64,000 bases of DNA from an uncultured Thermodesulfobacteriota bacterium (GTDB lineage Bacteria; Desulfobacterota; B13-G15), in contig CAZSWV010000006.1 of assembly GCA_964611295.1 (NCBI GenBank), positions 7,571-71,570 of the forward strand, given 5' to 3'. The position numbers and the translations under genes were made by a program. The notes beneath the pieces are model-generated. The model searched no databases. It was given only the letters and a program-made list of their open reading frames with translations, and was not told the DNA's origin. The first letter of the stretch is position 1; each line of letters begins with the position of its first letter. Below, piece by piece: positions 5,714 through 63,797 of the stretch.

Positions 5714-6568
5714 ATGGAGATAAAGAAAATAGGAATTGTAGGTGCAGGGGCTATGGGGAGTGGGATCGCTCAAGTCTGTGCGCAAGTGGGATTTGAAGTG
5801 ATCATCAGGGACCTAACTGAGGAGCTCGTCCAAAAGGGTATAAAGAGCATAGACGCCTTTATGACTGAAGGGATAAGGCGTGGGAAGGTCACTGAAGAGC
5901 AGAAGCAGCAGACCCTTTCACGTATAAAGGGAACTACTTCCATGGCTGACCTAAAGGACGTGGATTTTGTGGTAGAGGCAGTGGTAGAGGACATGGAGGT
6001 AAAGAAGCAGGTTTTTAAAGAGCTTGACGAGCTTGTGAGGCCAGAGGTCATCCTTTCTACCAATACTTCTTCTTTAAGCATTACCGAAATTGCTACTGCG
6101 ACAAAGAGGCCTGATAAAGTGGTAGGGATGCATTTCTTCAACCCTGTACCCTTGATGAGGCTTGTGGAGATTGTGAAAGGGCTTGAGACAAGCGACGAGA
6201 CTGTGAAGGTGTGTTATGAACTTGCAGAAAAACTCGGCAAGGTACCTGTGGTCATTAAGAAGGACGTCCCTGGTTTTGTGGTCAATAGGATCATGATGAT
6301 ACAGTTTATGGAGGCGATAAGGCTTTACGAGGAGGGTGTGGCTTCCTTGGAGGACATAGACAAAGCGGTGAAGTTCGGTTTGAACTACCCCATGGGACCT
6401 TTCGAGCTCATGGACCTCACGGGGCTAGACATTGGTTATCACGTGAACGAGTATCTTGCGAAGGAACTAGATTACTGGCCTGCTACCCCTTACAGCCTTA
6501 AGGTAAGGGTTAAAGCCGGGAAGCTGGGCAGGAAGTCAGGCGAGGGTTGGTATAAGTATCAGAAGTAA
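5714..6568 (+). CDS. hbd: 3-hydroxyacyl-CoA / 3-hydroxybutyryl-CoA dehydrogenase
   Basis: N-terminal Rossmann IGIVGAGAMGSGIAQV and the FadB/Hbd family signature, 284 aa. Confidence 0.85.
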   Translation: MEIKKIGIVGAGAMGSGIAQVCAQVGFEVIIRDLTEELVQKGIKSIDAFMTEGIRRGKVTEEQKQQTLSRIKGTTSMADLKDVDFVVEAVVEDMEVKKQVFKELDELVRPEVILSTNTSSLSITEIATATKRPDKVVGMHFFNPVPLMRLVEIVKGLETSDETVKVCYELAEKLGKVPVVIKKDVPGFVVNRIMMIQFMEAIRLYEEGVASLEDIDKAVKFGLNYPMGPFELMDLTGLDIGYHVNEYLAKELDYWPATPYSLKVRVKAGKLGRKSGEGWYKYQK

Positions 6569-6580
6569 GGAGGAGGGGAG

Positions 6581-7363
6581 ATGGAACTTAATTTCGAAAA
6601 CCTAAAGGTGGAGAAGTTCGAGCGAGTACTCCTTGTGACCCTTAATCGTCCTCCTTATAACCCCCTTAGTTCTGCCCTTTACGGTGAGATCCTCAAGCTC
6701 TGTGAGGAAGTGGAAAAAAGCGGGGAAGTCAAGGTCATGGTGATATATGGGGCTGGAAAGGCTTTCTCCACAGGCCTTGACGTTAAGGAGGTGGAGGGGA
6801 AATCGGTGGTGGAGATGGCCTCGATAGGGGACCTAAGCAGGAAGGCATCCTGTGCCTTAGCTGAGTTGTCCATACCGACTATTGCAGCCATCTCCGGTTT
6901 GGCGGTTGGTGGAGGGTTGGAGCTGGCCCTTTGTTGCGACTTTAGGTTTGCCTCTGAGGATTCGAGGTTCGGGCAGCCCGAAATAAACTTGGGGATCATT
7001 CCCGGTGGTGGTGCTACCCAAAGGCTTCCCCGGTTGATAGGGCTTGCGCGGGCAAAGGAGTTGCTGTTCACGGGTCAGATGATAGATGCCAAAAGGGCCT
7101 TGGAGATAGGCTTAATCGATAAGGTGTTCCCTGCCGAGAGGCTACTTGAGGAAAGCTTGAACTTTGCCAAAGAGCTAGCGCAAAAGCCACTTGTGGCCCT
7201 TAAGGCATTGAAGCGGGCCATTTCCAAAGGCATTGATATGCCCCTTGATGCAGCGCTGGTCTATGAAGGGCAGTGTTTCTTACAGACCTATGTATCGGAG
7301 GATGGGCGAGAAGGCCTTAGGGCCTTTGTGGAGAAGCGCAAGCCCGAGTTCAAAGACCGCTGA
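6581..7363 (+). CDS. enoyl-CoA hydratase/isomerase (crotonase family)
   Basis: Crotonase fold motifs AISGLAVGGGLELALCCDFRFA and PEINLGIIPGGGATQRL, 260 aa. Confidence 0.85.
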   Translation: MELNFENLKVEKFERVLLVTLNRPPYNPLSSALYGEILKLCEEVEKSGEVKVMVIYGAGKAFSTGLDVKEVEGKSVVEMASIGDLSRKASCALAELSIPTIAAISGLAVGGGLELALCCDFRFASEDSRFGQPEINLGIIPGGGATQRLPRLIGLARAKELLFTGQMIDAKRALEIGLIDKVFPAERLLEESLNFAKELAQKPLVALKALKRAISKGIDMPLDAALVYEGQCFLQTYVSEDGREGLRAFVEKRKPEFKDR

Positions 7364-7376
7364 GAGGAGGTGACGT

Positions 7377-8561
7377 ATGGAGCGGAGGGTGTGTATCGTC
7401 GGCGGTGGGATGTGTAAATGGGGGCAAAGGGAAGCGAGTTTGTGGGATTTGGTGCAGGAGGCGGGAAAGGAATGCCTTGAGGACATCCCGGGGCTTAAGC
7501 CCAAGGATATAGACGGTTTGATCTTCGCCAATGCTACGGCCGGAAGGCGCGGGTTTCAGATCAACAGTGCCCCCATCGCTGCCGAGAGGCTTGGTATAAA
7601 ACCTACTTCCATATGCTGTCGGGTGGACGTGTTGTGTGCGAGTGGGAGTACAGCCATCCTTTTGGCCTACGGGTTGATAAAGAGCGGCATGGCCGACGTG
7701 ATCATGGTGGTCGGTGGGGAAAAGTGCTATACGCCCCAGAAATGGGAGATCTTTTATAGCGAACTTGCGACAGCTGATCACGATTGGGATAGCGTTCACG
7801 GTCTAGGGCTGCCTCCCCCTTACTTTGCCATGGTGGCCAAGGAACACATGAAGCATTACGGTACCACCAAGGAACACCTCGCATGGGTTTCGGTGGTGAA
7901 CTATAACTATGGTGCTGAAAACCCGAAGGCCCAATTCCAGAAGAAGTTGACCCTTGAGGAAGCCCTAAACGCCCCAGAGGTGGTACCGCCCCTTACCCTT
8001 TACGACTGTTGCCCCATAACAGATGGAGCGGCGGCTGTGGTCTTGGCTTGCGAGGAGAAGGCAAAGGACATGACCAATAGACCCCTTGTTTACATCCGCG
8101 GAGGGGCACAGGCGAGCCTTCATGCTTGTTCGGCCAATTGGCCGGGTGAACACTTCGCCGATTGGCCCCATTTGCGTGCTGCAGCCCAAAGGGCATATTC
8201 AGTGGCGAAGGTTGGGCCGGAGGACATCGACGTTGCCCAGACCCATGACTGTTTCAGCATCTCTCAGGTAATCGAGGTAGAAGAACTTGGGTTCTGCAAG
8301 AAAGGCGAAGGCGGTCCCTTTATCGCCTCGGGTCAGACCAAGATAGGGGGTAAGATCCCCATCAACACCGATGGAGGGCTTCTATCAGTAGGTCACCCCT
8401 TTGGGGCCACGGGGATCCGTCAGGCCATAGAGATAATGAAGCAATTACAAGGTAGGGCTAGGTTCCAGGTGGAAGGAGCTGAGATAGGTTTGACGCACAA
8501 CCTGAGCGGTTTGAACTTTGAGCACACGATCGTCATCTATGGAAGGGAACCAGTGAAGTAA
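7377..8561 (+). CDS. thiolase-like protein (SCP-x / DUF35-partnered type)
   Basis: Thiolase fold with the active-site region VDVLCASGSTAIL. It is the type that pairs with a DUF35 Zn-ribbon protein (archaeal thiolase/HMGCS and BbsAB-like). Confidence 0.75.
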   Translation: MERRVCIVGGGMCKWGQREASLWDLVQEAGKECLEDIPGLKPKDIDGLIFANATAGRRGFQINSAPIAAERLGIKPTSICCRVDVLCASGSTAILLAYGLIKSGMADVIMVVGGEKCYTPQKWEIFYSELATADHDWDSVHGLGLPPPYFAMVAKEHMKHYGTTKEHLAWVSVVNYNYGAENPKAQFQKKLTLEEALNAPEVVPPLTLYDCCPITDGAAAVVLACEEKAKDMTNRPLVYIRGGAQASLHACSANWPGEHFADWPHLRAAAQRAYSVAKVGPEDIDVAQTHDCFSISQVIEVEELGFCKKGEGGPFIASGQTKIGGKIPINTDGGLLSVGHPFGATGIRQAIEIMKQLQGRARFQVEGAEIGLTHNLSGLNFEHTIVIYGREPVK

Positions 8562-8574
8562 AGGAGGTGAAGAG

Positions 8575-9075
8575 ATGGCCGTCCTTGGCGTACCGATAAT
8601 AGAAGACAAATACCCTTACACTATGGACATGTGGCCTTTGCAGTGTAAGGAGTTCAATCGGCTCTATAAGTTTTACGAACATTTAAAAGAAGGGCGGTTT
8701 ACCACAACGAGGTGTAGGACTTGTGGTCATGTGGCCTATCCCCCACGGGTTATATGTCCACAATGCTATTCAGAAGACCTCGAATGGATAGACCTCCCTA
8801 AAAGGGGCAAAGTAATAGTCTTCACCGAACAGGTGAGAGGCGTGCCCCTTGGGTTTGAGTCGCCGCTGATTCACGCCCTTATTGACCTAGGGGAAGGAAG
8901 TCCTGTGAGGCGGATCCTTTCCAGGATCATCAACTGTCCAGCCGGAAAGCTCAAGGAAGGGGATGAGGTACAACTTGTAGTCTTCCCCGTGCCTTCCCAT
9001 CCCATTGAGGTCAAAGGCGGTGAGATGAAGTGGGTCGACAGGGTCTTTTTTGCCTTTGAACCTGTGCAGAAATAA
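8575..9075 (+). CDS. DUF35 Zn-ribbon/OB-fold protein (thiolase partner)
   Basis: CRTCGHVAYPPRVICPQC zinc ribbon followed by an OB-fold region, 166 aa, directly after the thiolase. Confidence 0.75.
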   Translation: MAVLGVPIIEDKYPYTMDMWPLQCKEFNRLYKFYEHLKEGRFTTTRCRTCGHVAYPPRVICPQCYSEDLEWIDLPKRGKVIVFTEQVRGVPLGFESPLIHALIDLGEGSPVRRILSRIINCPAGKLKEGDEVQLVVFPVPSHPIEVKGGEMKWVDRVFFAFEPVQK

Positions 9076-9087
9076 GTAGCGTAGCCA

Positions 9088-9133
9088 AAAAGAAAGGGGG
9101 GCATGGCCCCCCTTTCTTTTTGGGGGGCTTTTT
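9088..9133. terminator. bidirectional rho-independent terminator
   Basis: 15-bp stem AAAGAAAGGGGGGC / GCCCCCCTTTCTTT with T-runs on both sides, between the convergent DUF35 gene and ligase-1. Confidence 0.7.
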
Positions 9134-9136
9134 CAT

Positions 9137-10708
9137 CTAGAGCGTCCTTAGCCTATAACGCATGATCTTCCCGGTAACGGTCCTTGGCAACTCCTTGACA
9201 AACTCTATGGCTTTTGGGGCCTTGAAGTGGGCGATTTTGCTTTTTACGAACTCTATGAGTTCCTTTTCCAGTTCCTTTGAGGGCTCATAGCCTTCTTTAA
9301 GGACTACGAAGCCTTTACCCTTCAGAAGGCCGTCCTCAAAGGGCATAGCCACCACAGCGCACTCCTGTACAGCAGGGTGCTCGAGAAGGGCGTTTTCCAC
9401 TTCCATTGGGGCTACCCATTGGCCGCTGATCTTCATCATGTCGTCTGCCCTGCCTTGGTAGTAATAAAGGCCTTCGTCGTCCTTGTAGAAGAGGTCTCCG
9501 GTCTTGAACCATTCTCCGAAAAAGACCTCCTTGTTCTTCTCGTGCCTTCGCCAATAAAATGGAGTAATTCCGTCGTTTTTAAGCCACAGTTCGCCCACTT
9601 CACCTGGTGCCTTTACGTCTTCACCTTCCTCCCCCACAAGTCTTGCCTCAAAACCGGGCAGGAGCATCCCTGAACAGTCGGGTTTTTCTTGGAGGTTGGG
9701 GTTGGCGATGTATTGGCCTCCTACGTCGGTACTACCAAGGCCGTTCACTATGGGTTTTTTGAAACGTTCCCAGAGCCTTTCCACTATCGTTCGAGGCATA
9801 GGCTCACCGGATGTGACGAAGGCCCTAACGGAACTGAAATCGACCTCTACGCCTTTTTCCAATTCCCTGAGCATGGCCGAATAAAAGCTCGGAACGCTGA
9901 AAAACAAGGTCGGTCTGTATTTCTTAACGATCTCAAATACTTCACCGATAGTATCAGGTGAAGGCCATTTGGGCCAGAGGACAGCTGAAACACCGTAAAG
10001 GAGTGTTGTGTCAAAGGTGGCGTTTTTCCCATAGGCAAAGAACATCTTAGAGGTGCAAAAAATGACGTCATCCTCCTTTACCTTATAGACGGTCTCACAC
10101 ACCGGCGGCCAATTGTAAAGTACATCGTGATGTAAATGGACCACTGCCTTGGGAAGCCCTGTAGTTCCGGAAGTATACATCCAGTAAGCCATGTCATCTT
10201 TAGAGGTTTCCTCAGGTTGAAGTTCAGCGGATGCCTTTTCTAGGAGCTGATCGAAGTTGAGAGTACCCGGCACCTCCTTACCTACCACTATTACATGTCT
10301 TAAGAACCTCGCTTGGTCTTTTATGGGGGCTATTTTTTCGTAAAGGTCATCAGATACTAGGATGGCCTTAGCCCTTGAGTCGTTTAAGAAGAAAAGGTAA
10401 TCACGCGAGGCTCCCATGGTGTTGACGGGAACAGGTATAGCCCCAATTTTCATGGCGCCAAGGACTCCGTAGAAATAAGCAGGAGAATCCCAAACAAGGA
10501 CCACCACTCGGTCTTCAGGAGCGATCCCCAATTGCCTCAAGGCATTACCAGTGCGGTTCACCTTTTCCAAGAGCTCCTTATAGGTGATCTTTTGGTCCAG
10601 ATAATACAAGGCCACCTTTTCTCCTCGTCCTTCCTTTAAATGCCTGTCTGTCAGAAACTCCGCTTGATTGAAAGCTTCGGGCACTTTAATCCCCAGAAAA
10701 CTAAACAT
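9137..10708 (-). CDS. AMP-dependent synthetase/ligase (benzoate-CoA-ligase-like), paralog 1
   Basis: AMP-binding motif YTSGTTGLPKAVVHLHHD. The start was re-set to the ATG at 10708 (MFSFLGIKV...) by alignment to paralog 2, with GGAGGTG upstream. The 619-aa ORF in the track is an artefactual 5' extension. Confidence 0.8.
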   Translation of the reverse strand: MFSFLGIKVPEAFNQAEFLTDRHLKEGRGEKVALYYLDQKITYKELLEKVNRTGNALRQLGIAPEDRVVVLVWDSPAYFYGVLGAMKIGAIPVPVNTMGASRDYLFFLNDSRAKAILVSDDLYEKIAPIKDQARFLRHVIVVGKEVPGTLNFDQLLEKASAELQPEETSKDDMAYWMYTSGTTGLPKAVVHLHHDVLYNWPPVCETVYKVKEDDVIFCTSKMFFAYGKNATFDTTLLYGVSAVLWPKWPSPDTIGEVFEIVKKYRPTLFFSVPSFYSAMLRELEKGVEVDFSSVRAFVTSGEPMPRTIVERLWERFKKPIVNGLGSTDVGGQYIANPNLQEKPDCSGMLLPGFEARLVGEEGEDVKAPGEVGELWLKNDGITPFYWRRHEKNKEVFFGEWFKTGDLFYKDDEGLYYYQGRADDMMKISGQWVAPMEVENALLEHPAVQECAVVAMPFEDGLLKGKGFVVLKEGYEPSKELEKELIEFVKSKIAHFKAPKAIEFVKELPRTVTGKIMRYRLRTL

Positions 10709-10820
10709 CCCACACCTCCCCCTTTTTTCAGGACTACCATTATAAGACATCGTTCCTTTATGGTGCAACAAAAAGGCCTTATAAGACCATAAAAGGATAA
10801 AAGAGGGCGTTTTAAAAAAC

Positions 10821-10850
10821 TTGACAAAGGGCCTTAGATGAAGGTAAGTT
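10821..10850 (+). promoter_or_regulatory. candidate promoter for the nuo operon
   Basis: TTGACA at 10821-10826 with an A-rich tract upstream. The -10 is weak (TAAGTT, 18-nt spacer). Confidence 0.3.
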
Positions 10851-10865
10851 TTCTGGGGGGCGGCG

Positions 10866-11237
10866 GTGAGCCTAGTGCTCAGGGATTTTTCTTTTGTCCT
10901 CATCTTCATACTGTTATCTTTTTTGCTCTGTTTCTTAGTTTTTGTAGTACCCTGGGTTATTGCCCCGCGTTCAAAAGGGGTAAAGGCACAGGACATATAC
11001 GAATGTGGGGTTGATCCCTTTGGGAGCGCTTGGGTAAGGTATTTTGCCCCCTTTTACCTTTATGCCTTGATCTTTGTTGCCTTCGATGTGGACGTTCTGT
11101 ACCTTTTCCCGGTGGCCTTGGGTTATTGGCGGGAAGGGGGTAGTGATAGGTTTTTGGTGCTTTTAATCTTTTTGGCCTTTTTGGTCTTTCCCCTTGCGTA
11201 TGCGTGGAGGAAGGGGGTCTTTTGGTGGAGGCCGTAG
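10866..11237 (+). CDS. nuoA: NADH-quinone oxidoreductase subunit A
   Basis: 123 aa, three TM segments, NuoA/ND3-like ...[12 protein letters not shown].... Probable GTG start. Confidence 0.8.
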
Positions 11238-29907: not shown

Positions 29908-29934
29908 CTAAAACAAATGTGGAGGAGGAAAGGG

Positions 29935-31761
29935 ATGTTCATCAAGAAGAAGGGGTGGGGGTTTCTGACGCATGTAGTACAGAGGCAGAGGTTTCAATTG
30001 GAGGATGTGGACAAACCTGAGCTATTTAAGGACATCTTCCCATATACGGAAATATGTCGCACGGTTTTTGACCACCACGTGGAACTCATCGATCCACCGG
30101 AGGAAATCTTTATAACCGATACCACCTTCCGCGACGGTCAGCAGGCCCGTCCCCCTTACACAGTGGAACAGGTAGTCGAACTCTATGACCTCCTTTACCG
30201 ACTTGGAGGGGCTGCGGGCGTAATAAGGCAAACTGAGTTTTTCCTCTACAGCCAAAGGGATAGGGAAGCGGTAGAACGATGTATGGAACGGGGATATAGG
30301 TATCCTGAGATAACAGGGTGGATCAGGGCTAGTAAGGAAGACCTTAAGCTCGTAAAAGAGATGGGTTTAAAGGAGACGGGGATTTTGACCTCAGTTTCCG
30401 ATTATCACATCTTTCTCAAACTCGGCAAGAACCGCAGGACGGCCATGATAGACTACCTAAGGATAGTGGAGGCGGCCTTGGAACTTGGGATAAGGCCAAG
30501 GTGCCATTTCGAGGACGTCACTAGGGCTGACGTCTACGGTTTTGTCGTCCCGTTGGCCCAAGAGCTCATGAGGCTTTCTGAAGAAAGCGGTATTCCGGTA
30601 AAGATACGCCTTTGTGACACCCTAGGCGTAGGTGTGCCTTATCCAGGGGTGGCCCTGCCGAGAAGCGTCCCCAAGTTGGTTAGGGCCATGGTAGAGGATG
30701 CAGGGGTGCCACCTGAACAGCTGGAGTGGCACGGGCACAACGATTTCTATAAGGCCCTAGTAAATGGGGTCACGGCTTGGCTTTACGGTTGTGCTGCTGT
30801 TAACGGGACCCTTTTAGGACTTGGGGAAAGGACGGGCAACACCCCTATTGAGGCTTTGATTATCGAGTACATAAGCCTTACCGGCAAAAGCGATGGGATA
30901 GATACCACTGCCATAACGGACATAAGGAACTTTTACGAACAGGTGATTGGTGAGAGGATCCCAAAGAACCAGCCCTTTGTAGGGGCTGAGTTTAACCTCA
31001 CAAGGGCAGGGATCCACATAGATGGTTTGATCAAGCATGAGGAGATCTATAACAGTTTCGACACTGAACGGATCCTCCGCAGGCCGCCTGCTATCTCCAT
31101 TACCGACAAATCGGGTACAGCTGGAATAGCGTATTGGATCAATTCCTATTTCGCCCTTCCACCGGAAAAAAGGGTCGATAAGCGCCACCCAGGGGTGATC
31201 AAGGTCTATAAGTGGGTAAAGGAACAATATGAAAAAGGGAGGGTCACGGATATATCCTCAGAAGAGCTTGAGAAAAAGGTGAGGAAGTACCTGCCAGAGC
31301 TCTTTATATCCGATTTTGACCGCATAAAGCAGAGGGCTTATGAAATGGCGGCCCATTTAGTGGAAAAGCTTGCAGAGCATCCTGACATCCGTTCCATGGA
31401 CCCGAAGCGTCAGGAACCCCTCCTTGGAAAGGTGTTGGAGGAACATCCGTTTATACAATTCCTCTACGTGGTAAACCTCGAGGGACGGAAGATCACACGC
31501 AACATCTGCCATCCCGAAGACAAGGCCAAATACGAGGCCATCGGTTTAGATGAGGACTTCTCCAACCGGGATTGGTTTATCGGTCCCCTTAAGTCAGGGA
31601 AGGTTTATGTGTCCAACTTTTACACCTCGCGTATCACCGGGGCCCTTTGCATAACGGTCTCGGCGCCTGTTAGGAACTACGAGGAAGAGATCGTAGGGGT
31701 TATAGGCATGGACCTGAGATTCGAAGAGTTGGTCAAGGCCGAGGAGGAAGAGGAAGAATAA
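29935..31761 (+). CDS. DRE-TIM metallolyase (2-isopropylmalate / homocitrate / citramalate synthase family) fused to a C-terminal Cache/PAS-like domain
   Basis: TDTTFRDGQQ and HGHNDFYKALVNGVTAWLYGCAAVNGTLLGLGERTGNTPIE are LeuA/NifV-family metal-site motifs. The C-terminus ...GKVYVSNFYTSRITGALCITVSAPV..GVIGMDLRF matches the Cache-domain consensus, and the protein ends in a poly-Glu tail. Confidence 0.6.
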   Translation: MFIKKKGWGFLTHVVQRQRFQLEDVDKPELFKDIFPYTEICRTVFDHHVELIDPPEEIFITDTTFRDGQQARPPYTVEQVVELYDLLYRLGGAAGVIRQTEFFLYSQRDREAVERCMERGYRYPEITGWIRASKEDLKLVKEMGLKETGILTSVSDYHIFLKLGKNRRTAMIDYLRIVEAALELGIRPRCHFEDVTRADVYGFVVPLAQELMRLSEESGIPVKIRLCDTLGVGVPYPGVALPRSVPKLVRAMVEDAGVPPEQLEWHGHNDFYKALVNGVTAWLYGCAAVNGTLLGLGERTGNTPIEALIIEYISLTGKSDGIDTTAITDIRNFYEQVIGERIPKNQPFVGAEFNLTRAGIHIDGLIKHEEIYNSFDTERILRRPPAISITDKSGTAGIAYWINSYFALPPEKRVDKRHPGVIKVYKWVKEQYEKGRVTDISSEELEKKVRKYLPELFISDFDRIKQRAYEMAAHLVEKLAEHPDIRSMDPKRQEPLLGKVLEEHPFIQFLYVVNLEGRKITRNICHPEDKAKYEAIGLDEDFSNRDWFIGPLKSGKVYVSNFYTSRITGALCITVSAPVRNYEEEIVGVIGMDLRFEELVKAEEEEEE

Positions 31762-57067: not shown

Positions 57068-57097
57068 TTGACAATTTTAAGGCCCATGTGGGATATT
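57068..57097 (+). promoter_or_regulatory. weak candidate promoter for the OTase gene
   Basis: TTGACA at 57068-57073 and GATATT at 57092-57097 with an 18-nt spacer. This would make the ATG at 57107 nearly leaderless. Confidence 0.25.
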
Positions 57098-57106
57098 AAC
57101 GGAAAA

Positions 57107-59119
57107 ATGAAACGGCCTTTTTTAGTTGCGCTTGTCCTCTTTGGTTTATGTTTTGCCTTTAAGCTCTACCAGGCCAGATGGATCTTCCAGCATAAGCCCT
57201 TTTACTTTACCAAGGACGGTACCCCAGTGCTCACAGAGGCAGATGGCTATTATTTCCTCAGGCTTGGAGAGCTCATAGCGGAGGGGCAGTACCGTCCAGG
57301 GGCACCCGATCCCCTAAGGAACGCTCCTGACAACCAAAGGCCCCTAGAAAGCAAAAAGGTCCCTCTGCCCTTTCTTCCTCCCCTTTTGAGCTTCCTTTTG
57401 GCAGTGACGAAGTGGCTTACAGGTAAAGACATAGAGAGGGCTTTTTTGGCCTTTCCTTTGATCCCCTTCCTTTCCTCCCTTCAGGTCTTTCCCATGTTTT
57501 ACCTTGGGAGAAGGCTTGGGGGGAACCTCTTAGGTGTGGGGCTTGCCCTTGGTGCATCTTTTTCCTTGGAGTACCTCATAAGGACGGACATCTTAAGGCT
57601 CGATACCGATGCCTTGAACCTCTTTTTCCTCTTTTCGGTAGCCCTTTTGCTCTTAAGGCTCCTTGACCGTTGGTCCTTTAAGGACCTGATAGGTCTGAGC
57701 ATAATGGTGCATCTCTTCCAGTTGTGGTATGCCCATCCTGGGCTCCTCATACCCCTTTTTGCCTTTTTCGCCCTCTCTTTGCTCCTTAAGGAGAAGGACC
57801 TGGGAGTTACCCTCAAGAGGACAGCCCTTGTGCTGTTTTTTTCCAACCCCTTTATCCTTTACCAGGGCCTTTTTAACCTCTTGGACCTATTCAAGGGCTA
57901 CATCCCGGGCCTCATAAAGGAAGAAAACCCCTTTATCCCCAGGGCTGTTTTTGCCCAATCTGTAAGCGAGCTTCAGAAACTCAGCCCTGAAAGGGTCTTC
58001 CGAATGACAGCTGTCCATCCCTTTTTGGGTTACCTAAGCCTTCTAGGGCTGTTTGTGCTCTACCTGAGGGAAAGGCGTGCCCTTTTGCTTTTCCCCCTCA
58101 TGCTCTTGGGGATGATGTCCCTTTTTGGGGCAAGGCGTTTCATGGTCTACTTGGGCCCCTTTGTCGGCCTTGGGCTTGGTGTCCTAGTCCAAGTGGTCTT
58201 TGAAATTACGAGGAAGCGATACGAAAAAGCGCCCCTTTTCCCTTTGGAGCTAGGCCTCGGTGTGCTTTTGTTCCTCTCCGTAATACACCCCAGTCGTTTC
58301 GCCATAAGGCCCCTTCCGCCCATAACCCCTGGTTTGATGGAGGGGATAAAGCTCTTAAAGGAGATAGCCCCAGAGGGGTGTTTTGTCTGGTCGTGGTGGG
58401 ATTACGGTTACCCCATAGCACAGGGCTCCAAACGGGCCGTCTACCATGACGGGGGTAGTTGGGGAGGGCCGAAGAGCCTACTTGTGGCAAGGAGCTTTGT
58501 ATTACCTCCTTTTAAGGCCTATAACGTGGTCAACGGGACTACTGCCCTTGGAGAGGAGGGGATAAGGGAGCTGTTGAAGGGGGGCAAAAGCCCAGGGGAG
58601 ATCCTCAGGGAAGTAGAGGAAGGGAGGCACAACCGTCCTCTTAAGGAGAAAGTGTACCTCCTTTTTTCAGGACTTGACGTGAGGAAGTTCTACTGGATCT
58701 CCTTTTTCGGGACATGGGACCCTGACAGGCGCCAAGGCCTACACCTCTTCTACCTCCCTTTGGGGCTCTGCCAAGAAACCCCCCAAGGCTTTATGTGCCA
58801 GCGGGGTTCTGTGGACCTAAAAAAGGGCCTTGCAGAGGAGATGGAATCAGGAGTCCTATCCATAGGTAGGGTGGAAAAGGTGAGACTTTCCACAGATGAT
58901 AGGTTTTTGTCAAAAGAGATCCTAAGGGAGGGAGAGGGGGTGTTATTCTTCCTTGTGGAGAAGGAGGGGAGGCTTTTTGGCTTTTTGGCCCACCCTATGG
59001 TCCAGAAGACTACCTTTCACAAGTTGTTTTTCGAAGCGGAAGAGGGCCTTTTTAAGCTTGTGCTTTCTGATTTTCCGAGGTTCAGGATATACGAAGTCTT
59101 AGGTGAAAATCTTCCTTGA
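57107..59119 (+). CDS. STT3/AglB/PglB-family oligosaccharyltransferase
   Basis: The WWDYGY catalytic motif lies in SWWDYGYPIAQ, followed by DGGSW. A DK-type motif LDVRKFYWI (DxxKxxxI) is present. The EL1 motif TEADGYYFLR resembles Stt3 E-x-D-x-W/Y-F/Y-x-x-R, and there are about 11-13 N-terminal TM segments. Alternative upstream starts are TTG 57068 and ATG 57086. Confidence 0.7.
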   Translation: MKRPFLVALVLFGLCFAFKLYQARWIFQHKPFYFTKDGTPVLTEADGYYFLRLGELIAEGQYRPGAPDPLRNAPDNQRPLESKKVPLPFLPPLLSFLLAVTKWLTGKDIERAFLAFPLIPFLSSLQVFPMFYLGRRLGGNLLGVGLALGASFSLEYLIRTDILRLDTDALNLFFLFSVALLLLRLLDRWSFKDLIGLSIMVHLFQLWYAHPGLLIPLFAFFALSLLLKEKDLGVTLKRTALVLFFSNPFILYQGLFNLLDLFKGYIPGLIKEENPFIPRAVFAQSVSELQKLSPERVFRMTAVHPFLGYLSLLGLFVLYLRERRALLLFPLMLLGMMSLFGARRFMVYLGPFVGLGLGVLVQVVFEITRKRYEKAPLFPLELGLGVLLFLSVIHPSRFAIRPLPPITPGLMEGIKLLKEIAPEGCFVWSWWDYGYPIAQGSKRAVYHDGGSWGGPKSLLVARSFVLPPFKAYNVVNGTTALGEEGIRELLKGGKSPGEILREVEEGRHNRPLKEKVYLLFSGLDVRKFYWISFFGTWDPDRRQGLHLFYLPLGLCQETPQGFMCQRGSVDLKKGLAEEMESGVLSIGRVEKVRLSTDDRFLSKEILREGEGVLFFLVEKEGRLFGFLAHPMVQKTTFHKLFFEAEEGLFKLVLSDFPRFRIYEVLGENLP

Positions 59120-59145
59120 CACCAAAGGGCTTTGTGGCATTAAAT
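59116..59145 (+). promoter_or_regulatory. candidate promoter for the pilin gene
   Basis: TTGACA at 59116-59121 overlapping the OTase stop, an 18-nt spacer, then TTAAAT at 59140-59145. The pilin RBS is AAAGGAGGG. Confidence 0.4.
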
Positions 59146-59186
59146 AGCTGTGTGGTTTTTTTAAAAAACTCGAAAGGAGGGTTGTC

Positions 59187-59693
59187 ATGGTTCTAAGGTG
59201 TCTTAAGCGGAAGCTACGAAGTAAGAAGGGTTTTACTTTAATCGAACTTATGATCGTTGTGGCTATTATAGGGATTTTGGCAGCAATAGCTATACCTACT
59301 TACATGGATTATACTGTAAGGGCCAAGGTTTCTGAAGCGGTTAGCCTTCTAGCAGGATATGCCACAGCAGCTGCCGAGTATCATAATTCATACGGTAATT
59401 TCACACGAGACATCAGCGCATTTGGAGAATCAAAAACAAGCAAATATGTAAGCAATGTTACAATTGGTGATCTTAACAAGTGTGATGTAAAGGAGCCTGA
59501 TGCTATATGCTTTGTGGCCACTTTGCAGGGTATATCAAGTGATGTCAACGGCAAGAAAATTGGTCTGGAGGTTTACTACAACTCTCAAAATGGAACATAC
59601 GATAAATGCTATGATTGGAACTTGGATAAAGTAAAATATATTCCATCCAGTGTCCGCCAGAGACAATGCCAAAATGATGACGCAGCAGGTTAA
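59187..59693 (+). CDS. type IV (major) pilin, class III signal peptide
   Basis: Leader [15 protein letters not shown], then [22 protein letters not shown] with Glu at +5. C-terminal Cys pairs are present. The gene is visibly more A/T-rich than its neighbours. Confidence 0.85.
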
Positions 59694-59710
59694 GGGTACT
59701 GATTATCTCG

Positions 59711-60127
59711 ATGGGTAAAGGGCTTACTTTGCTGGAGGTTATGATTGTTGTAGTGATCGTAGGTATCCTTGCAGCCATTGCCATTCCTTCTTATACCCAT
59801 TATGTGAAGAGGGCCAGGAGGGCTGATGCCATGAATGCCCTCTTGGCCCTCCATGCGGCCCAGGAGTCTTACAAGGCCGAGCATGGGCGGTATGGTGACT
59901 TTGGCGAACTATCAGGTTGTTCCCCAAATATGGCGGGTGAGAACTATATGATAAGCCTTAACCTTTCTGATAACCGCACGTCTTACAACGCCACTGCCAT
60001 CCCTCAGGGCAGGCAGAAGGGCGACTACTGTCTAAGGATAGATCAGGACGGTAAGCAGTACTATGCCCCTTCTTCGGACGGAGGATGTGGAACTTTTACT
60101 GAGAAGAAGTTTTCCGAGTTAAGGTAG
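59711..60127 (+). CDS. type IV pilin-like protein (minor pilin/pseudopilin)
   Basis: MGKG, then [22 protein letters not shown] with Glu at +5. C-terminal Cys pair C...C. Confidence 0.75.
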   Translation: MGKGLTLLEVMIVVVIVGILAAIAIPSYTHYVKRARRADAMNALLALHAAQESYKAEHGRYGDFGELSGCSPNMAGENYMISLNLSDNRTSYNATAIPQGRQKGDYCLRIDQDGKQYYAPSSDGGCGTFTEKKFSELR

Positions 60128-60198
60128 TCCTCTTTAGGTTGCCTTCCTTCCCCTTTAGGTGTAACCTTAACTTAGGACCTAAAAGAGGTTGGGGAGAG

Positions 60199-61533
60199 AT
60201 GACAACAGGTGATGGCTACCAAGAAAAGGTAAGGCGTATCTATCGTTTCATAAGCGAGAACTTCTACCTGAACAGGCCTGACCTTGAGATAAAAGGGGAA
60301 AGGTACAACTCTGCCCTCCTTTTCGGGATACTCACTGCCCTTTATGGTGGCAAAGAACTGATAATAGGGGAGCCAGGCCTCGGTAAGACTACAAGCGCCG
60401 AGTACATAGGATGCTTAATTTACCGCTATCCCCTTGGGGTCATATGGGGGAGCGAAGTCTCAGGGCACCCCGAACAGACGGAGGAAAAGATCGTGGGAAG
60501 GCCTGATCTTGGGGCCTTGAACCAGGGACGAGAGGTGGTGGTCTGGAGCAACTTCGTGCAACTGCCTGTGAAGATCGTGGACGAGATAAACCGCCTGCCT
60601 GAGACCAAACAGTCCATGATCCTTGACGGGGTCGACCGCGGCAATTGGGAGTATCTCAACGAAATGATAATCAACGACGAGTACGTGCTTTTTGCCACCG
60701 CCAACTACCAAGACCGCGGGACCAATACCATAATCGCGCCCTTGGTAGACAGGTTTGACGTACTTGTCGAATCAAGACATCCAGGGCCAAACCTCGCCTT
60801 CCAGATCGGCAGGCGTTCGAAGCTGTATAACCCCCTGCGGCATCCGGAGTTCGAAAGGAAGTTCCATGAGCTTTTGAGGTCGCAGGTGCCATATGAGGAA
60901 AAGGTCCCAAGGCTTGAAGAACTATGTGAGGCCTATGGCCAGTACCTCAAAGAGAAGGTAGGCATCGAAGGCCTAAGCAAGGAGGAAAGGTTCGAAATAA
61001 GGAAGCAGATCGCCTCCATACCCCTTGACCTCGATTCGAACGCCTTCCTGAGGATGGTCCTTGCCGAATTCTCCTTCTGTCACCGTTATGGGCAGAAGAG
61101 GAGTGTCGAGCAGTGCCAGGAAGGGTGCCACTACACGGGTTATTTCTGCTACCATGTGAAAAACTGTGCCTCCAACCGCCTCCCCATCTCAGCAGTAGGG
61201 TATGCACAAGCCCTGGCCTGGTTCCTGGAGGAGGATGAGGTAGACCTCGAACACGTAAAGGCAGTCCTACCCTTTGTCTTGGCCCATAGGGTCCAGTGGA
61301 AGGACTCTTACATATCCAAGAAGGAAAGCGAGGGCAGGAACGACCCCTTACAGATATACCTTGCCAAGGAAGCCGTAGAGGAGATCTTCCACCGCTATAA
61401 CGAGCAGCGGGATTACCTCTTGGAAGCCCTGGCCGTTGCCTCTGAGGCCTTTGAGGGGCGGGAGGTGCAGCTACTGGACGGTGACCATCCCATATACGAA
61501 GAGATAAAGAAGGAGATAGCGGCCTTAAGATGA
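60199..61533 (+). CDS. MoxR-family AAA+ ATPase with a Cys/His-rich C-terminal insertion
   Basis: Walker A GEPGLGKTT and Walker B VDEINRL, with a MoxR-like sensor region. It also carries CHRYGQKRSVEQCQEGCHYTGYFCYHVKNC. The start was set to the ATG at 60199. Confidence 0.8.
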   Translation: MTTGDGYQEKVRRIYRFISENFYLNRPDLEIKGERYNSALLFGILTALYGGKELIIGEPGLGKTTSAEYIGCLIYRYPLGVIWGSEVSGHPEQTEEKIVGRPDLGALNQGREVVVWSNFVQLPVKIVDEINRLPETKQSMILDGVDRGNWEYLNEMIINDEYVLFATANYQDRGTNTIIAPLVDRFDVLVESRHPGPNLAFQIGRRSKLYNPLRHPEFERKFHELLRSQVPYEEKVPRLEELCEAYGQYLKEKVGIEGLSKEERFEIRKQIASIPLDLDSNAFLRMVLAEFSFCHRYGQKRSVEQCQEGCHYTGYFCYHVKNCASNRLPISAVGYAQALAWFLEEDEVDLEHVKAVLPFVLAHRVQWKDSYISKKESEGRNDPLQIYLAKEAVEEIFHRYNEQRDYLLEALAVASEAFEGREVQLLDGDHPIYEEIKKEIAALR

Positions 61534-62234
61534 AGAACCCTTTTGAAGAGTTCAAGAGGCATCCGAGTAAGGAGAGGTCAAAGGAGATCCCCCTTGACAG
61601 GATCCTGCGCCAGAAAGAAGAGACCTTACAGAGGATCCTTCGGGGTTATGAGAACCTTTTGAAGAACGAGGCGAAGGATTTGGTGTGGCTCATGCAGTAC
61701 AGTACGGTCATCAAGGCCTATAGCATCGCCGAAGAGGCCATAAGGGACATAGAGTACACAGCCGAAGACATAGAGGAATTTTGCTATGCCCTCGATAGGA
61801 CCGATCAGATCCCCTATCTGATCACTGGGCCTGCAGGGGTCTACATATCGGCGCTTTGTAACTACGCAAAGGAGTCCGAGATCGTCTTAAGGCTCCAGGA
61901 CCTGGGGATAAAGATAAACCTTTTGGGCTACAGGCTCCCCGAAGGGAAAAGGCTCATCGTGGAAGGGAACCTTGGGGACTTCACCGGTATAAGCCTTGAA
62001 GGGGGCGAACTGATCGTTGAAGGCAGCACCAAGAACTACACGGGTGCGGGTATGAAGAGGGGGAGGATAATAGTCAGGAACAACGCAGGGTTCAACACCG
62101 GTCATGGGATGACTGGAGGGGAAATCCTAGTAGGGGGGAGGATAAAGGGTCTCGGGAAGATCGTAGGCGGTAAGATTTACGAGAAGGACCAATTGATCTT
62201 CCCAAGTGAGGATTACAGGCCCTTCTATTTCTAG
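61530..62234 (+). CDS. GXGXG-repeat beta-helix protein (GltB domain-3 / FwdC-like)
   Basis: Tandem repeats GNLGDFTGISLEGGELIVEGSTKNYTGAGMKRGRIIVRNNAGFNTGHGMTGGEILVGGRIKG are typical of glutamate-synthase domain-3 / FwdC-like folds. Confidence 0.6.
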   Translation: MKNPFEEFKRHPSKERSKEIPLDRILRQKEETLQRILRGYENLLKNEAKDLVWLMQYSTVIKAYSIAEEAIRDIEYTAEDIEEFCYALDRTDQIPYLITGPAGVYISALCNYAKESEIVLRLQDLGIKINLLGYRLPEGKRLIVEGNLGDFTGISLEGGELIVEGSTKNYTGAGMKRGRIIVRNNAGFNTGHGMTGGEILVGGRIKGLGKIVGGKIYEKDQLIFPSEDYRPFYF

Positions 62235-62237
62235 GCC

Positions 62238-63797
62238 ATGGACAGGGAAGAACTGCTGAAAAAGATCTGGCCAAAGGTCAGGAAAAAGCACCTTTACCCG
62301 CAGTTGCCCATGCCCGAGTTTGTGGAGGGGGAAGAACTTGTCGGCCTTGAAATGAAAAGCAAAAAGCTCCAGTTGAACACCGCCTTCTTGGACCTCATGA
62401 AGGAAAAGATGGCAGAGGAAGATGTGCTTGAAGCCTTGCTAGACCACGGGATATCCCATTACATGTTCTGTCCTTGGGACTTTGAGACCCACTTGGTGCT
62501 TTACAGTGAGGCCAAAAAGGTCTTAAAGGACAAGAGGCTTGCCCAGAAGGCTGCCTCCTACTTCATGGACGTTGTGGCCAACACTTACTGCGTAAGGGAA
62601 AAGGAGACCAAGATCCCTGAACTCTACCGCAACCTCCCCAAACAAGGCATCCACAGGCTCATGGCCATGCTCTATCAGGTCATATGGGGGGTGGAGCTTG
62701 GGGTGGAGGGTGAAGACGAAAGGGTAAAACGTTTGGCGCGTATCCCTTATTTGGACAAGAGGCTTTGGAAGGAAAGCGTGAGGAAGTTCGCCAAGGCCTT
62801 AGAGGAGCTCTTACAAGAAGAGGCCCAAAACGAGCAGAAACAGAACCAGAAGATGCCCAATCCCTTGGGAGAGCATTCCCTGGAGAACTACACCTTGGAA
62901 GAGATAGACAGGGGCATAAGGAACTTCGCCACTTCGGTTGAAGACATCCAACAGTTCCGCGAGGCCATTGAGGACTTCAAAGAAGAACTAAGCGCCATGG
63001 GATACTCCACAGGCGGTATAGGCCGCGGCCGCGGTAACCCTGTGGATGCTGACCTTTTGTACTACATGAAGCTTGCCGAAAACTACACCCTCCCCATCAA
63101 GAAGTTGCCCATGCAGAAAAGCGGGGCCCTTCATCCCTATTCCCACTCGCCCTGGGAGATCGGTAAACCCACCCAGGACATTGATCCCTGGACGAGCTTT
63201 GGCAAGATCATGCCAGGACTCACCCAGACGTGGGTGAGGAGGGAAGGGGAGGTCTTTGGCGAAGCGGAGGCCATCCCCGATTGCCTCGTCATAATAGATT
63301 CTTCTGGCAGTATGACCAATCCTAGGGAAAAGCTCTCCTATGCTGTCCTTGGGGCTGCATGTGCGTGTAATGCCTATTTGAAAAACGACAGGAGGGTGGC
63401 CGTCTATAACTTCTCTGATGCCTTCAGGGGAAACAAGGTCCTCCTTGAGTTTTCAAGGGAGAAGGAGGCCATCTATCAAGCCATATGTAGGTACTTTGGC
63501 GGTGGCACGGCCCTTGACCTCAACGATATCCTGTACCTGCTTAAAAAGGCCGAAAAGCCCGATATATTCATCATAACCGACATGCAGATCACCAACCTCG
63601 AAAAGCTCATAGAGTTCTTCAACGGGATCGACAACCGGGTGACGGCGGTGCACATCGGGGAGAACATCTATGCCTCGCGTTTCCGCGAAGGGATAAAGCA
63701 GAAGAAGAACATCTCCCTGTTCATGGTCAAGGACAAGGAGGACATCCCCAAGATAGTCCTGGGGAAGGTGAGGGAATACTTCGGTTTGCCCTTCTAA
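62238..63797 (+). CDS. von Willebrand factor A (VWA) domain protein with a roughly 300-aa N-terminal domain
   Basis: MIDAS motif DCLVIIDSSGSM...T...D in the C-terminal third. Confidence 0.75.
   Translation: MDREELLKKIWPKVRKKHLYPQLPMPEFVEGEELVGLEMKSKKLQLNTAFLDLMKEKMAEEDVLEALLDHGISHYMFCPWDFETHLVLYSEAKKVLKDKRLAQKAASYFMDVVANTYCVREKETKIPELYRNLPKQGIHRLMAMLYQVIWGVELGVEGEDERVKRLARIPYLDKRLWKESVRKFAKALEELLQEEAQNEQKQNQKMPNPLGEHSLENYTLEEIDRGIRNFATSVEDIQQFREAIEDFKEELSAMGYSTGGIGRGRGNPVDADLLYYMKLAENYTLPIKKLPMQKSGALHPYSHSPWEIGKPTQDIDPWTSFGKIMPGLTQTWVRREGEVFGEAEAIPDCLVIIDSSGSMTNPREKLSYAVLGAACACNAYLKNDRRVAVYNFSDAFRGNKVLLEFSREKEAIYQAICRYFGGGTALDLNDILYLLKKAEKPDIFIITDMQITNLEKLIEFFNGIDNRVTAVHIGENIYASRFREGIKQKKNISLFMVKDKEDIPKIVLGKVREYFGLPF

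Follow-up and report, generated by a model that had tools for sequence, protein, structure and literature searches.

Introduction

Do some bacteria attach glycans to the asparagine residues of their type IV pilins? This question is raised by a locus in a stretch of 64,000 nucleotides, called the window here, from an uncultured Thermodesulfobacteriota bacterium (GenBank assembly GCA_964611295.1, contig CAZSWV010000006.1, positions 7,571 to 71,570 of the forward strand), in which a gene for a putative STT3-family oligosaccharyltransferase (OST), referred to below as the OTase, is directly followed by two genes for type IV pilins, pilin 1 and pilin 2, both of which carry several N-x-S/T sequons. 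In the open-access literature that was found, bacterial pilin glycosylation is O-linked and involves PglL, PilO/TfpO, or PglS, and archaea are regarded as the domain in which type IV filament subunits are N-glycosylated. No report of a bacterial OST of the DK type, i.e., with the Lys-type pocket described below, or of STT3-dependent N-glycosylation of a bacterial pilin was found in open-access full texts. This agrees with the original prediction, made from the letters of the window, that such a modification would be unusual.

Our answer has parts of different strength. We are nearly certain that the gene encodes a functional-looking PglB-like N-OST, and we consider it rather probable, from the sequences, that the adjacent pilins are N-glycosylated by this enzyme, as predicted. 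A broader proposal is advanced more tentatively, with slightly less than even confidence: a widespread bacterial OST clade, apparently common in hot-spring and vent lineages, would use a Lys-type pocket of the kind ascribed until now to archaea and eukaryotes and would need N-x-S/T alone, and in at least one Thermodesulfobacteriota lineage it would coat type IV pili with Asn-linked glycans.

Family Assignment and Fold of the Oligosaccharyltransferase

By its profile matches, the OTase belongs to the STT3/PglB/AglB superfamily of N-oligosaccharyltransferases (GT-C). It matches the Pfam family STT3 (PF02516; 54.9 bits, cutoff 24.5, E 1.4e-14) and the family STT3-PglB_core (PF21436; 28.1 bits, cutoff 23, E 3.2e-6). 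STT3 domains are the only ones that the Pfam scan detects in it, and the Wzy_C (O-antigen ligase-like) domain is absent. When the protein was compared by phmmer with all PDB chains, the top match was the PglB of Campylobacter lari (E 1e-14, residues 210-676), and the match to eukaryotic STT3 was limited to 60 residues centered on WWDYG. A family profile built from 45 OTase sequences gave the same order, because it matched C. lari PglB end to end (E 2.6e-80), STT3 by local similarity (E 1e-8 to 5e-14), and AglB fragments at E 5e-5 to 5e-3.

The AlphaFold2 model of the OTase (mean predicted local distance difference test score, pLDDT, 86.9; predicted template-modeling score, pTM, 0.84) has a multi-spanning N-terminal membrane domain and a C-terminal periplasmic globular domain. 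Its best superposition by Foldseek is on PglB 5OGL, with a template-modeling (TM) score of 0.77 over 733 alignment columns, against 0.54-0.59 for yeast and human STT3 and 0.51-0.57 for Archaeoglobus fulgidus AglB. The PglB of C. lari and C. jejuni (3RCE, 5OGL, 6GXC) is therefore the closest solved relative by profile and by fold, including the C-terminal periplasmic domain, at about 18% identity. The original prediction had called the enzyme STT3/AglB-type; the Pfam matches bear out the STT3 family, and profile and fold speak against the AglB part of the label, of which the DK-type pocket remains. The scores against the NCBIfam equivalog models of PglB (NF050801; 74.7 bits, cutoff 1300) and of archaeal AglB (TIGR04154; 26.9 bits, cutoff 450) both lie far below the cutoffs.

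Catalytic and Pocket Motifs

The motifs that distinguish OSTs of the three domains of life have been codified by the Kohda laboratory. The Ser/Thr pocket motif is either DK, DxxKxxx(M/I), which occurs in Eukarya and in part of the Archaea, or MI, MxxIxxx(I/V/W), which is present in all PglBs (PMC3703281, PMC8342417). For external loop 5 (EL5), TIXE is given as the spelling of Archaea and Bacteria and SVSE as that of Eukarya, and the DGG(K)-type motif is typical of bacterial PglB and euryarchaeal AglB (PMC8342417). By these published rules, the OTase combines two "non-bacterial" motifs, DK and SVSE, with a bacterial/euryarchaeal DGG and a PglB-like fold.

Residue by residue, the catalytic inventory known from PglB is complete in the OTase (Table 1): the Asp of external loop 1 (EL1), the DxD motif, the EL5 Glu, the Arg corresponding to PglB R375 (R357 in the OTase), WWDYG, and DGG are all present, and R357 is invariant in the 45 family sequences used for the conservation figures, which share 23-77% identity with the query. 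Re-translation confirmed WWDYG and the predicted DxxKxxxI in place of the bacterial MxxI. The phmmer alignment sets the D-V-R-K of the OTase against the M-L-R-I of PglB, so that D537 falls under the Met and K540 under the Ile (Ile572), and in the model the motif lies within a helix spanning residues 536-548. At EL5 the family is mixed, with 47 sequences reading SISE, 14 SVSE, and 18 TISE or TITE. The EL1 string that had been described as Stt3-like, TEADGYYFLR, proved no more Stt3- than PglB-like, since D59 is its sole invariant residue and the position two residues before it varies among E, S, T, and Y.

The residue that ties PglB to an acidic residue at sequon position -2 has no conserved equivalent here. 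The column of PglB Arg331 holds M313 in the OTase and Met or Leu in its clade, and the neighboring R312 is not conserved; as an internal control of the alignment, the Desulfovibrio-type PglBs show Arg in this column. The absence of an Arg331 equivalent fits a plain N-x-S/T specificity and the pilin sequons that lack an acidic -2 residue, and the relaxed specificity that had been proposed for the enzyme is thus a prediction consistent with both observations.

The OTase has a sole sequon of its own, N489-G-T, within VVNGTTALGEEG of the periplasmic domain. It is kept as NGTT in all seven homologues with at least 50% identity and falls in a modeled helix (481-504), and N489 might be a self-glycosylation site. 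The PglB of C. jejuni and eukaryotic STT3 are reportedly glycosylated themselves.

The Two Pilins and Their Sequons

Both downstream proteins have the hallmarks of type IV pilins, namely a class III signal peptide with a short basic leader and Gly at -1, followed by a hydrophobic helix with Glu at +5. In pilin 1 the leader ends in KKG, and the protein matches N_methyl (PF07963; 38.6 bits, cutoff 21.2, E 6.4e-10) and, above cutoff, Pilin (PF00114; E 6.7e-8). It is a type IVa, PilA-like pilin, probably the major one, and its orthologs are named PilA in their source annotations. Pilin 2, whose leader and helix read MGKG/LTLLEVMIVV with the slash at the cleavage point, matches N_methyl at 24.9 bits (same cutoff; E 1.4e-5) and, above cutoff, ComP_DUS (PF16732; E 7.2e-18); by these domain matches it is classed as a ComP_DUS-family, minor-pilin-like type IV pilin.

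As predicted, there are three sequons in each pilin, every one recovered on re-translation (Table 1), and their -2 residues are Y, V, S, S, S, and S, with D or E at none. The AlphaFold2 model of pilin 1 (pLDDT 86.2) shows the lollipop fold, with a long alpha1 helix (residues 18-69) and a four-stranded sheet, and places N71 where the alpha-beta loop begins, N90 in strand beta1, and N135 in the beta3-beta4 turn. In pilin 2 the three sequons are packed into 12 residues, a hot spot that is retained in the orthologs.

Sequon Over-representation in the Pilins of the Clade

To judge whether these numbers exceed chance, expected counts were taken from composition-preserving shuffles. The 54 open reading frames (ORFs) of the window contain 50 sequons, or 0.25 per 100 aa, and the two pilins have the top densities among them: 1.8 per 100 aa for pilin 1 (3 sequons, 1.2 expected, P 0.10) and 2.2 per 100 aa for pilin 2 (3 sequons, 0.7 expected, P 0.02). 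The excess is much larger when the clade is taken together. Fifteen distinct OTase-adjacent pilins hold 61 sequons against 19.7 expected (2.83 per 100 aa), and 18 pilin 1 orthologs from the protein database hold 63 against 28.1 (2.77 per 100 aa), each having at least one; every ortholog of pilin 2 has 3-5 sequons, where 0.6-0.9 are expected. The next-best 102 generic type IVa pilins, which where named come mostly from Gamma- and Betaproteobacteria, carry 123 sequons against 136.7 expected, a ratio of 0.9 (1.06 per 100 aa), and a quarter of them are sequon-free.

Acidic residues stand at -2 in just 6 of the 61 clade sequons, which is about the background frequency. Moreover, the sequon sites shift between orthologs while their number stays; one site is widely conserved, N-(E/G)-T-Y-(D/E)-K-C, directly before a conserved Cys. 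Turnover of sites at a constant number is the pattern that would be expected under selection for glycan coverage and not for a particular site.

Gene Linkage across Relatives

The surroundings of the relatives' OTase genes were surveyed at 97 loci, designated by the letter L and a number, 84 of which have a flank of at least 2 kb. In all relatives of at least 53% identity with enough downstream DNA (L001, L002, L004-L006, L022-L024, and L026), the same block is found, consisting of the OTase, in some an SNase-like gene, the pilin, the ComP-like pilin, and genes for AAA, GXGXG, VWA, and Lon proteins. The part from the OTase to the ComP-like pilin also occurs in L102-L106, and the whole set spans 53-76% identity. 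Upstream, the flank of this conserved block takes three forms (hisH/hisF, RsmF, or an inserted gene for a 1017-aa FAD/FeS oxidoreductase). The reverse look-up agrees, because four of four pilin 1 orthologs, picked by pilin similarity alone, have an STT3 gene directly upstream.

Linkage to genes of type IV filaments recurs far from the query. At 25-26% identity, the OTases of L003 and L012, the latter from an Acidobacteria metagenome-assembled genome (MAG), lie inside a run of four to seven pilin-like genes. At L034 (35% identity), two pilin genes, an unknown gene, a PilB/GspE-like ATPase gene, two unknown genes, and the OTase follow one another on one strand, and at L014, from an Aquificota, the neighbor on the other strand encodes an ATPase homologous to the PilB/GspE-like protein of L034, which from its N-terminus reads as PilT-like. 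Altogether, pilin-like ORFs have a density of 0.027 per kb within 3 kb of OTases and 0.004 per kb farther away, about a 7-fold difference, which the same few clades drive. When 102 OTases were grouped at 60% identity, pilin neighbors appeared in just five of the 48 clusters, representing three independent events. The recurrent neighbors of the wider family include no common acceptor or glycan gene, just lineage-specific housekeeping synteny. The adjacency noted at the outset is thus kept in the close clade and recurs in distant subclades, and it does not extend to most lineages of the family.

Two minor observations concern these loci. In a sister subclade (53% identity; L002 12154-12723, L103 5315-5884, L105, and L106), a gene for a secreted SNase-like nuclease lies between the OTase and the pilins, with a 4-nt overlap at the OTase stop codon; neither the window nor L001 has it. 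Taken with the ComP_DUS-type pilin, this gene invites the speculation that the filament takes part in DNA uptake or DNA processing. At L034, three ORFs flanking the OTase (6240-7897 and 9890-10933), in the same strand run as the two pilins and the PilB-like ATPase, have hydrophobic, signal-peptide-like N-termini and a common motif, (V/I)LIYKDPG(Y/F)Q(G/Q)DWA, and are without match in the other surveyed loci.

The Wider Bacterial Clade

An exhaustive profile search over 1.84 billion representatives returned 3986 proteins at E<=1e-3, 2332 at E<=1e-10, and 822 at E<=1e-30, the last mostly full-length (650-700 aa). The close relatives (53% identity) are, by genome matches, uncultured Thermodesulfobacteriota, and the distant ones (25-34% identity) come from Persephonella and other Aquificota, Phycisphaerae, Acidobacteria, and Desulfurellaceae. 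Neither the family search nor the source annotations revealed a characterized member, the names being "hypothetical protein", "STT3 domain-containing protein", or an automatic dolichyl-OST name. Distant bacterial homologues are not new in themselves, since Ollis et al. noted in 2015 PglB homologues in Aquificae (Hydrogenivirga) and in Geobacter (PMC4894442).

Lys occupies the second signature position in 89 of the 96 family sequences that were gathered together with their loci, and the first position has L (41), M (22), D (12), E (12), or Q (2), with Asp confined to the query's clade. Because the wider family has L/M/E/Q-x-x-K, the DK motif most likely arose within a bacterial lineage. The simplest reading would be a PglB-related bacterial lineage with a Lys-type pocket, one sub-lineage of which reached the exact DK spelling, and not a recent archaeal import. 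A horizontally acquired archaeal aglB was considered and ruled out on three grounds: profile and fold are those of bacterial PglB, the nearest bacterial relatives have L, M, E, or Q at the Asp position, and the GC content is flat over the region (0.48-0.52).

In a separate observation, one metagenomic contig (L069) carries tandem Lys-type OTase paralogues (5815-7812 and 7820-9838), with the motifs MVYKYDGI and MIGKFGAL, consistent with the rule that the paralogues of one organism have the same pocket type.

Proposed Mechanism and Alternative Explanations

In the mechanism that we propose, the OTase would be an active single-subunit PglB-like enzyme of a large uncharacterized bacterial clade, with its active site facing the periplasm by homology to PglB. 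Prepilins, as bitopic inner-membrane proteins with a periplasmic globular domain, would lie next to this active site. The N-x-S/T sequon would be bound through the S-V-S-E strand and the pocket formed by WWD, Lys540, and Ile544, with no Arg331-type need for an acidic -2 residue, and a preassembled glycan would be moved to Asn from a lipid-pyrophosphate carrier, presumably undecaprenyl. Several pilin Asn residues would be glycosylated before or during type IV filament assembly, and the pilins would then be processed and polymerized. The physiological role may be to stabilize the filament or to mask the surface, possibly in hot habitats. As most lineages lack a pilin neighbor, the OTase is unlikely to be a dedicated pilin glycosylase; it probably serves the cell as a general N-OST, the co-encoded pilins being prominent among its substrates. 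As a general rule for the family, a dedicated pilin-specific OTase was ruled out on the same ground.

Several observations weigh against N-glycosylated pilins. By themselves, the window pilins are weakly significant, and the statistics become strong once orthologs are added; these orthologs are phylogenetically non-independent, which leads us to grade the evidence as moderately strong. One of the three Asn residues of pilin 1, N90, would, in a predicted beta-strand, be a poor PglB-type acceptor unless modified before folding. In the 64-kb window, Pfam scans of 46 ORFs detected no glycosyltransferase, flippase, or glycan-assembly genes and none for the prepilin peptidase or other type IV pilus machinery (PilB/C/D/M-Q); the scanned ORFs are housekeeping or metabolic, including GroEL, nuo, TRAP transporters, beta-oxidation, and molybdoenzymes. 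All OTase relatives derive from uncultured metagenome-assembled genomes and bear hypothetical or automatic names. Pilin adjacency is not a family trait, since a pilin lies within 3 kb in 6 of the 84 loci with sufficient flank and about 40 of the 48 lineages have housekeeping neighbors alone, such as ValRS, ArgB, cupin, and SMC. Lastly, support from sequon enrichment is limited to the query's clade, because none is seen in the pseudopilins that neighbor the distant OTases (L003, L012, and L034; 16 sequons observed, 20 expected), and the synteny within the close clade could be merely inherited.

These last points lend themselves to another explanation, in which the OTase is a general N-OST with other periplasmic or surface targets, the pilins are unmodified or incidentally modified, and their position is inherited synteny without functional meaning. 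The housekeeping surroundings of most family members and the unenriched pseudopilins fit it, as do the promoter-like site of the OTase gene and the separate ribosome-binding site of pilin 1. It has, however, to account for a 2.2- to 3.1-fold excess of sequons in precisely those pilins that belong to the OTase-linked clade, against 0.9 in generic pilins, for an adjacency that persists through three different upstream rearrangements, and for links to type IV filament genes that arose at least three times independently; we regard it as unlikely. If instead the sequons were a by-product of composition or antigenic variation on fast-evolving surfaces rich in N, S, and T, the pilins would be unglycosylated or O-glycosylated by another enzyme, as all bacterial pilin glycosylation in the open-access literature found is O-linked. 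Such surfaces are indeed N/S/T-rich here (N fraction 0.05-0.07, S+T 0.18-0.23), and the sequon positions are poorly conserved. However, the excess survives shuffles that keep the composition, generic pilins, whose S+T content is no lower, stay at 0.9, and neither the window nor the relatives showed a PglL/PilO-type (Wzy_C) gene next to the pilins, all of which makes this account quite improbable.

It is also conceivable, at a very low probability, that this STT3 homologue glycosylates no protein in vivo and mainly hydrolyzes lipid-linked oligosaccharide to free periplasmic oligosaccharides, or uses a non-protein acceptor. Bacterial and eukaryotic OSTs do have lipid-linked-oligosaccharide hydrolase activity (PMC8342417), and most loci have no linked glycan-pathway or acceptor genes; against this, no positions in the family are more strongly conserved than those that recognize the peptide, namely WWD, Lys540/Ile544 of the Ser/Thr pocket, and the S-I/V-x-E strand that pairs with the sequon, which would be unexpected without a sequon-bearing acceptor. 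N-glycosylation of the adjacent pilins by a general N-OST is the reading that we favor.

Comparison with Known Glycosylation Systems

From PglB, with which it shares the catalytic residues, the OTase differs in having Lys for Ile572, Asp for Met, and SVSE for TIxE, in lacking an Arg331 equivalent, and in its surroundings, because pilin genes are its neighbors and no pgl glycan-assembly locus is nearby in the 64-kb window. The PglBs of Desulfovibrio (D. gigas, D. desulfuricans, and D. marinus), which have relaxed -2 specificity and accept a minimal N-x-T (PMC4894442, PMC12229607), are likewise N-OSTs of bacteria that belong to the same broad group at phylum level. However, those in our survey (L015-L021; Desulfovibrionaceae and Desulfohalobiaceae) form a separate branch with 23-29% identity to the OTase over partial matches, have R, L, or I and not Lys at the pocket position, keep the Arg331 equivalent, and have no pilin neighbors that we saw. 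That these enzymes keep Arg in the R331 column despite their reported relaxed -2 specificity agrees with Ollis et al., according to whom site choice is not restricted by R377 of D. gigas PglB.

Archaeal AglB acts on type IV pilins and archaellins, which have class III signal peptides and carry multiple N-glycans (PMC5131992, PMC2952790). The OTase resembles it in belonging to the STT3 family and in its DK (Lys-type) pocket and predicted plain N-x-S/T sequon, and differs in that AglB is much more distant than PglB in sequence and fold and that the host is a bacterium, whose carrier is presumably undecaprenyl and not dolichyl. Eukaryotic STT3 has the exact spellings SVSE and DxxKxxx(M/I) in common with the OTase (PMC8342417, PMC3703281), but it has the double-sequon motif DNxTxNx[T/S] where the OTase has DGG, and the OTase lacks partner subunits.

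The arrangement of the genes has a parallel among the O-OTases. In Acinetobacter, the O-OTase PglS glycosylates the pilin-like ComP, and O-OTases modify their substrates at the periplasmic face of the inner membrane; pglS adjoins comP, and pilO/tfpO adjoins pilA. The O-OTases associated with pilins (Pseudomonas aeruginosa PilO/TfpO, Acinetobacter PglS with ComP, and Neisseria PglL) thus resemble the OTase in that the enzyme is encoded beside a pilin, but they belong to an unrelated Wzy_C/WaaL-like family and form O-linkages to Ser/Thr, whereas the linkage made by the OTase is predicted to be to Asn.

An STT3-family bacterial OTase tied to sequon-enriched pilins would blur the divide between Bacteria and Archaea and, if the reading is true, would give archaeal pilin and archaellin N-glycosylation its first counterpart in bacteria. 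The pilins aside, the OTase contradicts the rule that assigns MI/TIXE to bacteria and DK/SVSE to archaea and eukaryotes (PMC3703281, PMC8342417), and it marks a large unexplored bacterial OST clade, i.e., the 822 clusters at E<=1e-30. The origin of the Lys-type pocket, by bacterial convergence or by ancient inheritance, thereby becomes addressable. OSTs that accept the minimal N-x-S/T are sought in order to make authentic glycoproteins in E. coli (PMC4894442, PMC12229607). With its Lys-type pocket and no Arg331 equivalent, the possibly thermostable OTase is a candidate for such an enzyme and, if the reading is true, a natural single-subunit one for glycoengineering.

Layout of the Locus

The features of the locus are collected in Table 1.

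Table 1. Positions in the window of the OTase gene, its motifs, the pilin genes, and the neighboring genes
Feature	Position	Strand	Remarks
OTase ORF as listed	57068..59119	+	683 aa from TTG 57068; PglB-like STT3-family N-oligosaccharyltransferase
Promoter-like site, TTGACA-18 nt-GATATT, TG-extended	57068..57097	+	10 nt 5' of ATG 57107; 10/12 consensus matches; pattern match only
EL1 string EADGYYFLRL	57236-57265	+	
Asp59, EL1 catalytic acidic residue	57242..57244	+	C. lari PglB Asp56 (phmmer alignment to 3rce/6gxc); invariant in 45 sequences
D179-T-D181, second DXD motif (EL2)	57602..57610	+	PglB D154/D156; >=90% conserved
S-V-S-E301, EL5	57959..57970	+	catalytic Glu, PglB E319 (TIME319); E301 invariant
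W443-W-D-Y-G447	58394..58408	+	part of Ser/Thr (+2) pocket; W443, W444, D445, G447 invariant
D461-G-G, DGG(K)-type motif	58448..58456	+	aligned with PglB DGGK; D461 invariant, G462 >=90% conserved
N489-G-T, OTase sequon	58532..58540	+	periplasmic domain
D537-V-R-K540-F-Y-W-I544, canonical DK motif DxxKxxx[M/I]	58676..58699	+	Lys-type Ser/Thr pocket; K540, I544 >=90% conserved
Pilin 1 ORF	59187..59693	+	168 aa
Pilin 1 sequons	NFT 59397-59405, NVT 59454-59462, NGT 59589-59597	+	N71, N90, N135
Pilin 2 ORF	59711..60127	+	138 aa
Pilin 2 sequons	NLS 59960-59968, NRT 59972-59980, NAT 59987-59995	+	N84, N88, N93
MoxR-like AAA+ ATPase	60139-61533	+	Pfam/NCBIfam matches
GXGXG-domain (FwdC/GltB-like) protein	61530-62234	+	Pfam/NCBIfam matches
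VWA-domain protein	62238-63797	+	Pfam/NCBIfam matches

The length of the OTase, given as 680 aa in the original prediction, depends on the start codon: besides the listed TTG, ATG 57086 gives 677 aa, the version in a 99%-identical homologue (P0001), and ATG 57107 gives 670 aa. Because close homologues start with MKRPFL, which corresponds to ATG 57107, and because TTG 57068 is the first base of the TTGACA box of the promoter-like site, ATG 57107 is most likely the true start, and the automatic calls of 677-683 aa are likely too long.

Re-translation and coordinates give intergenic gaps of 67 nt between the OTase and pilin 1, instead of the 68 nt noted before, and of 17 nt between the pilins, as noted. 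A site scan found no terminator-like site between the OTase and pilin 1, and the ribosome-binding site that precedes pilin 1 is GGAGG. Pilin 2 is separated by 11 nt from the AAA+ gene, which overlaps the GXGXG gene by 4 nt, and a gap of 3 nt follows before the VWA gene. This trio lies 3' of the pilins in all relatives examined, with its order kept in L001, L002, L103, and L105, and in the relatives the VWA gene is followed by genes for Lon and an ArsA-like ATPase. Upstream of the OTase, on the opposite strand, the window has hisH/hisF-like genes, labeled by the Pfam matches of orthologous genes.

Elsewhere in the window lies an unusual fusion, a 614-aa ORF (29917-31761) in which an HMGL-like (pyruvate carboxyltransferase/aldolase) domain (residues 65-339) is joined to a Cache/PDC sensor-like domain near the C-terminus (residues 481-605).

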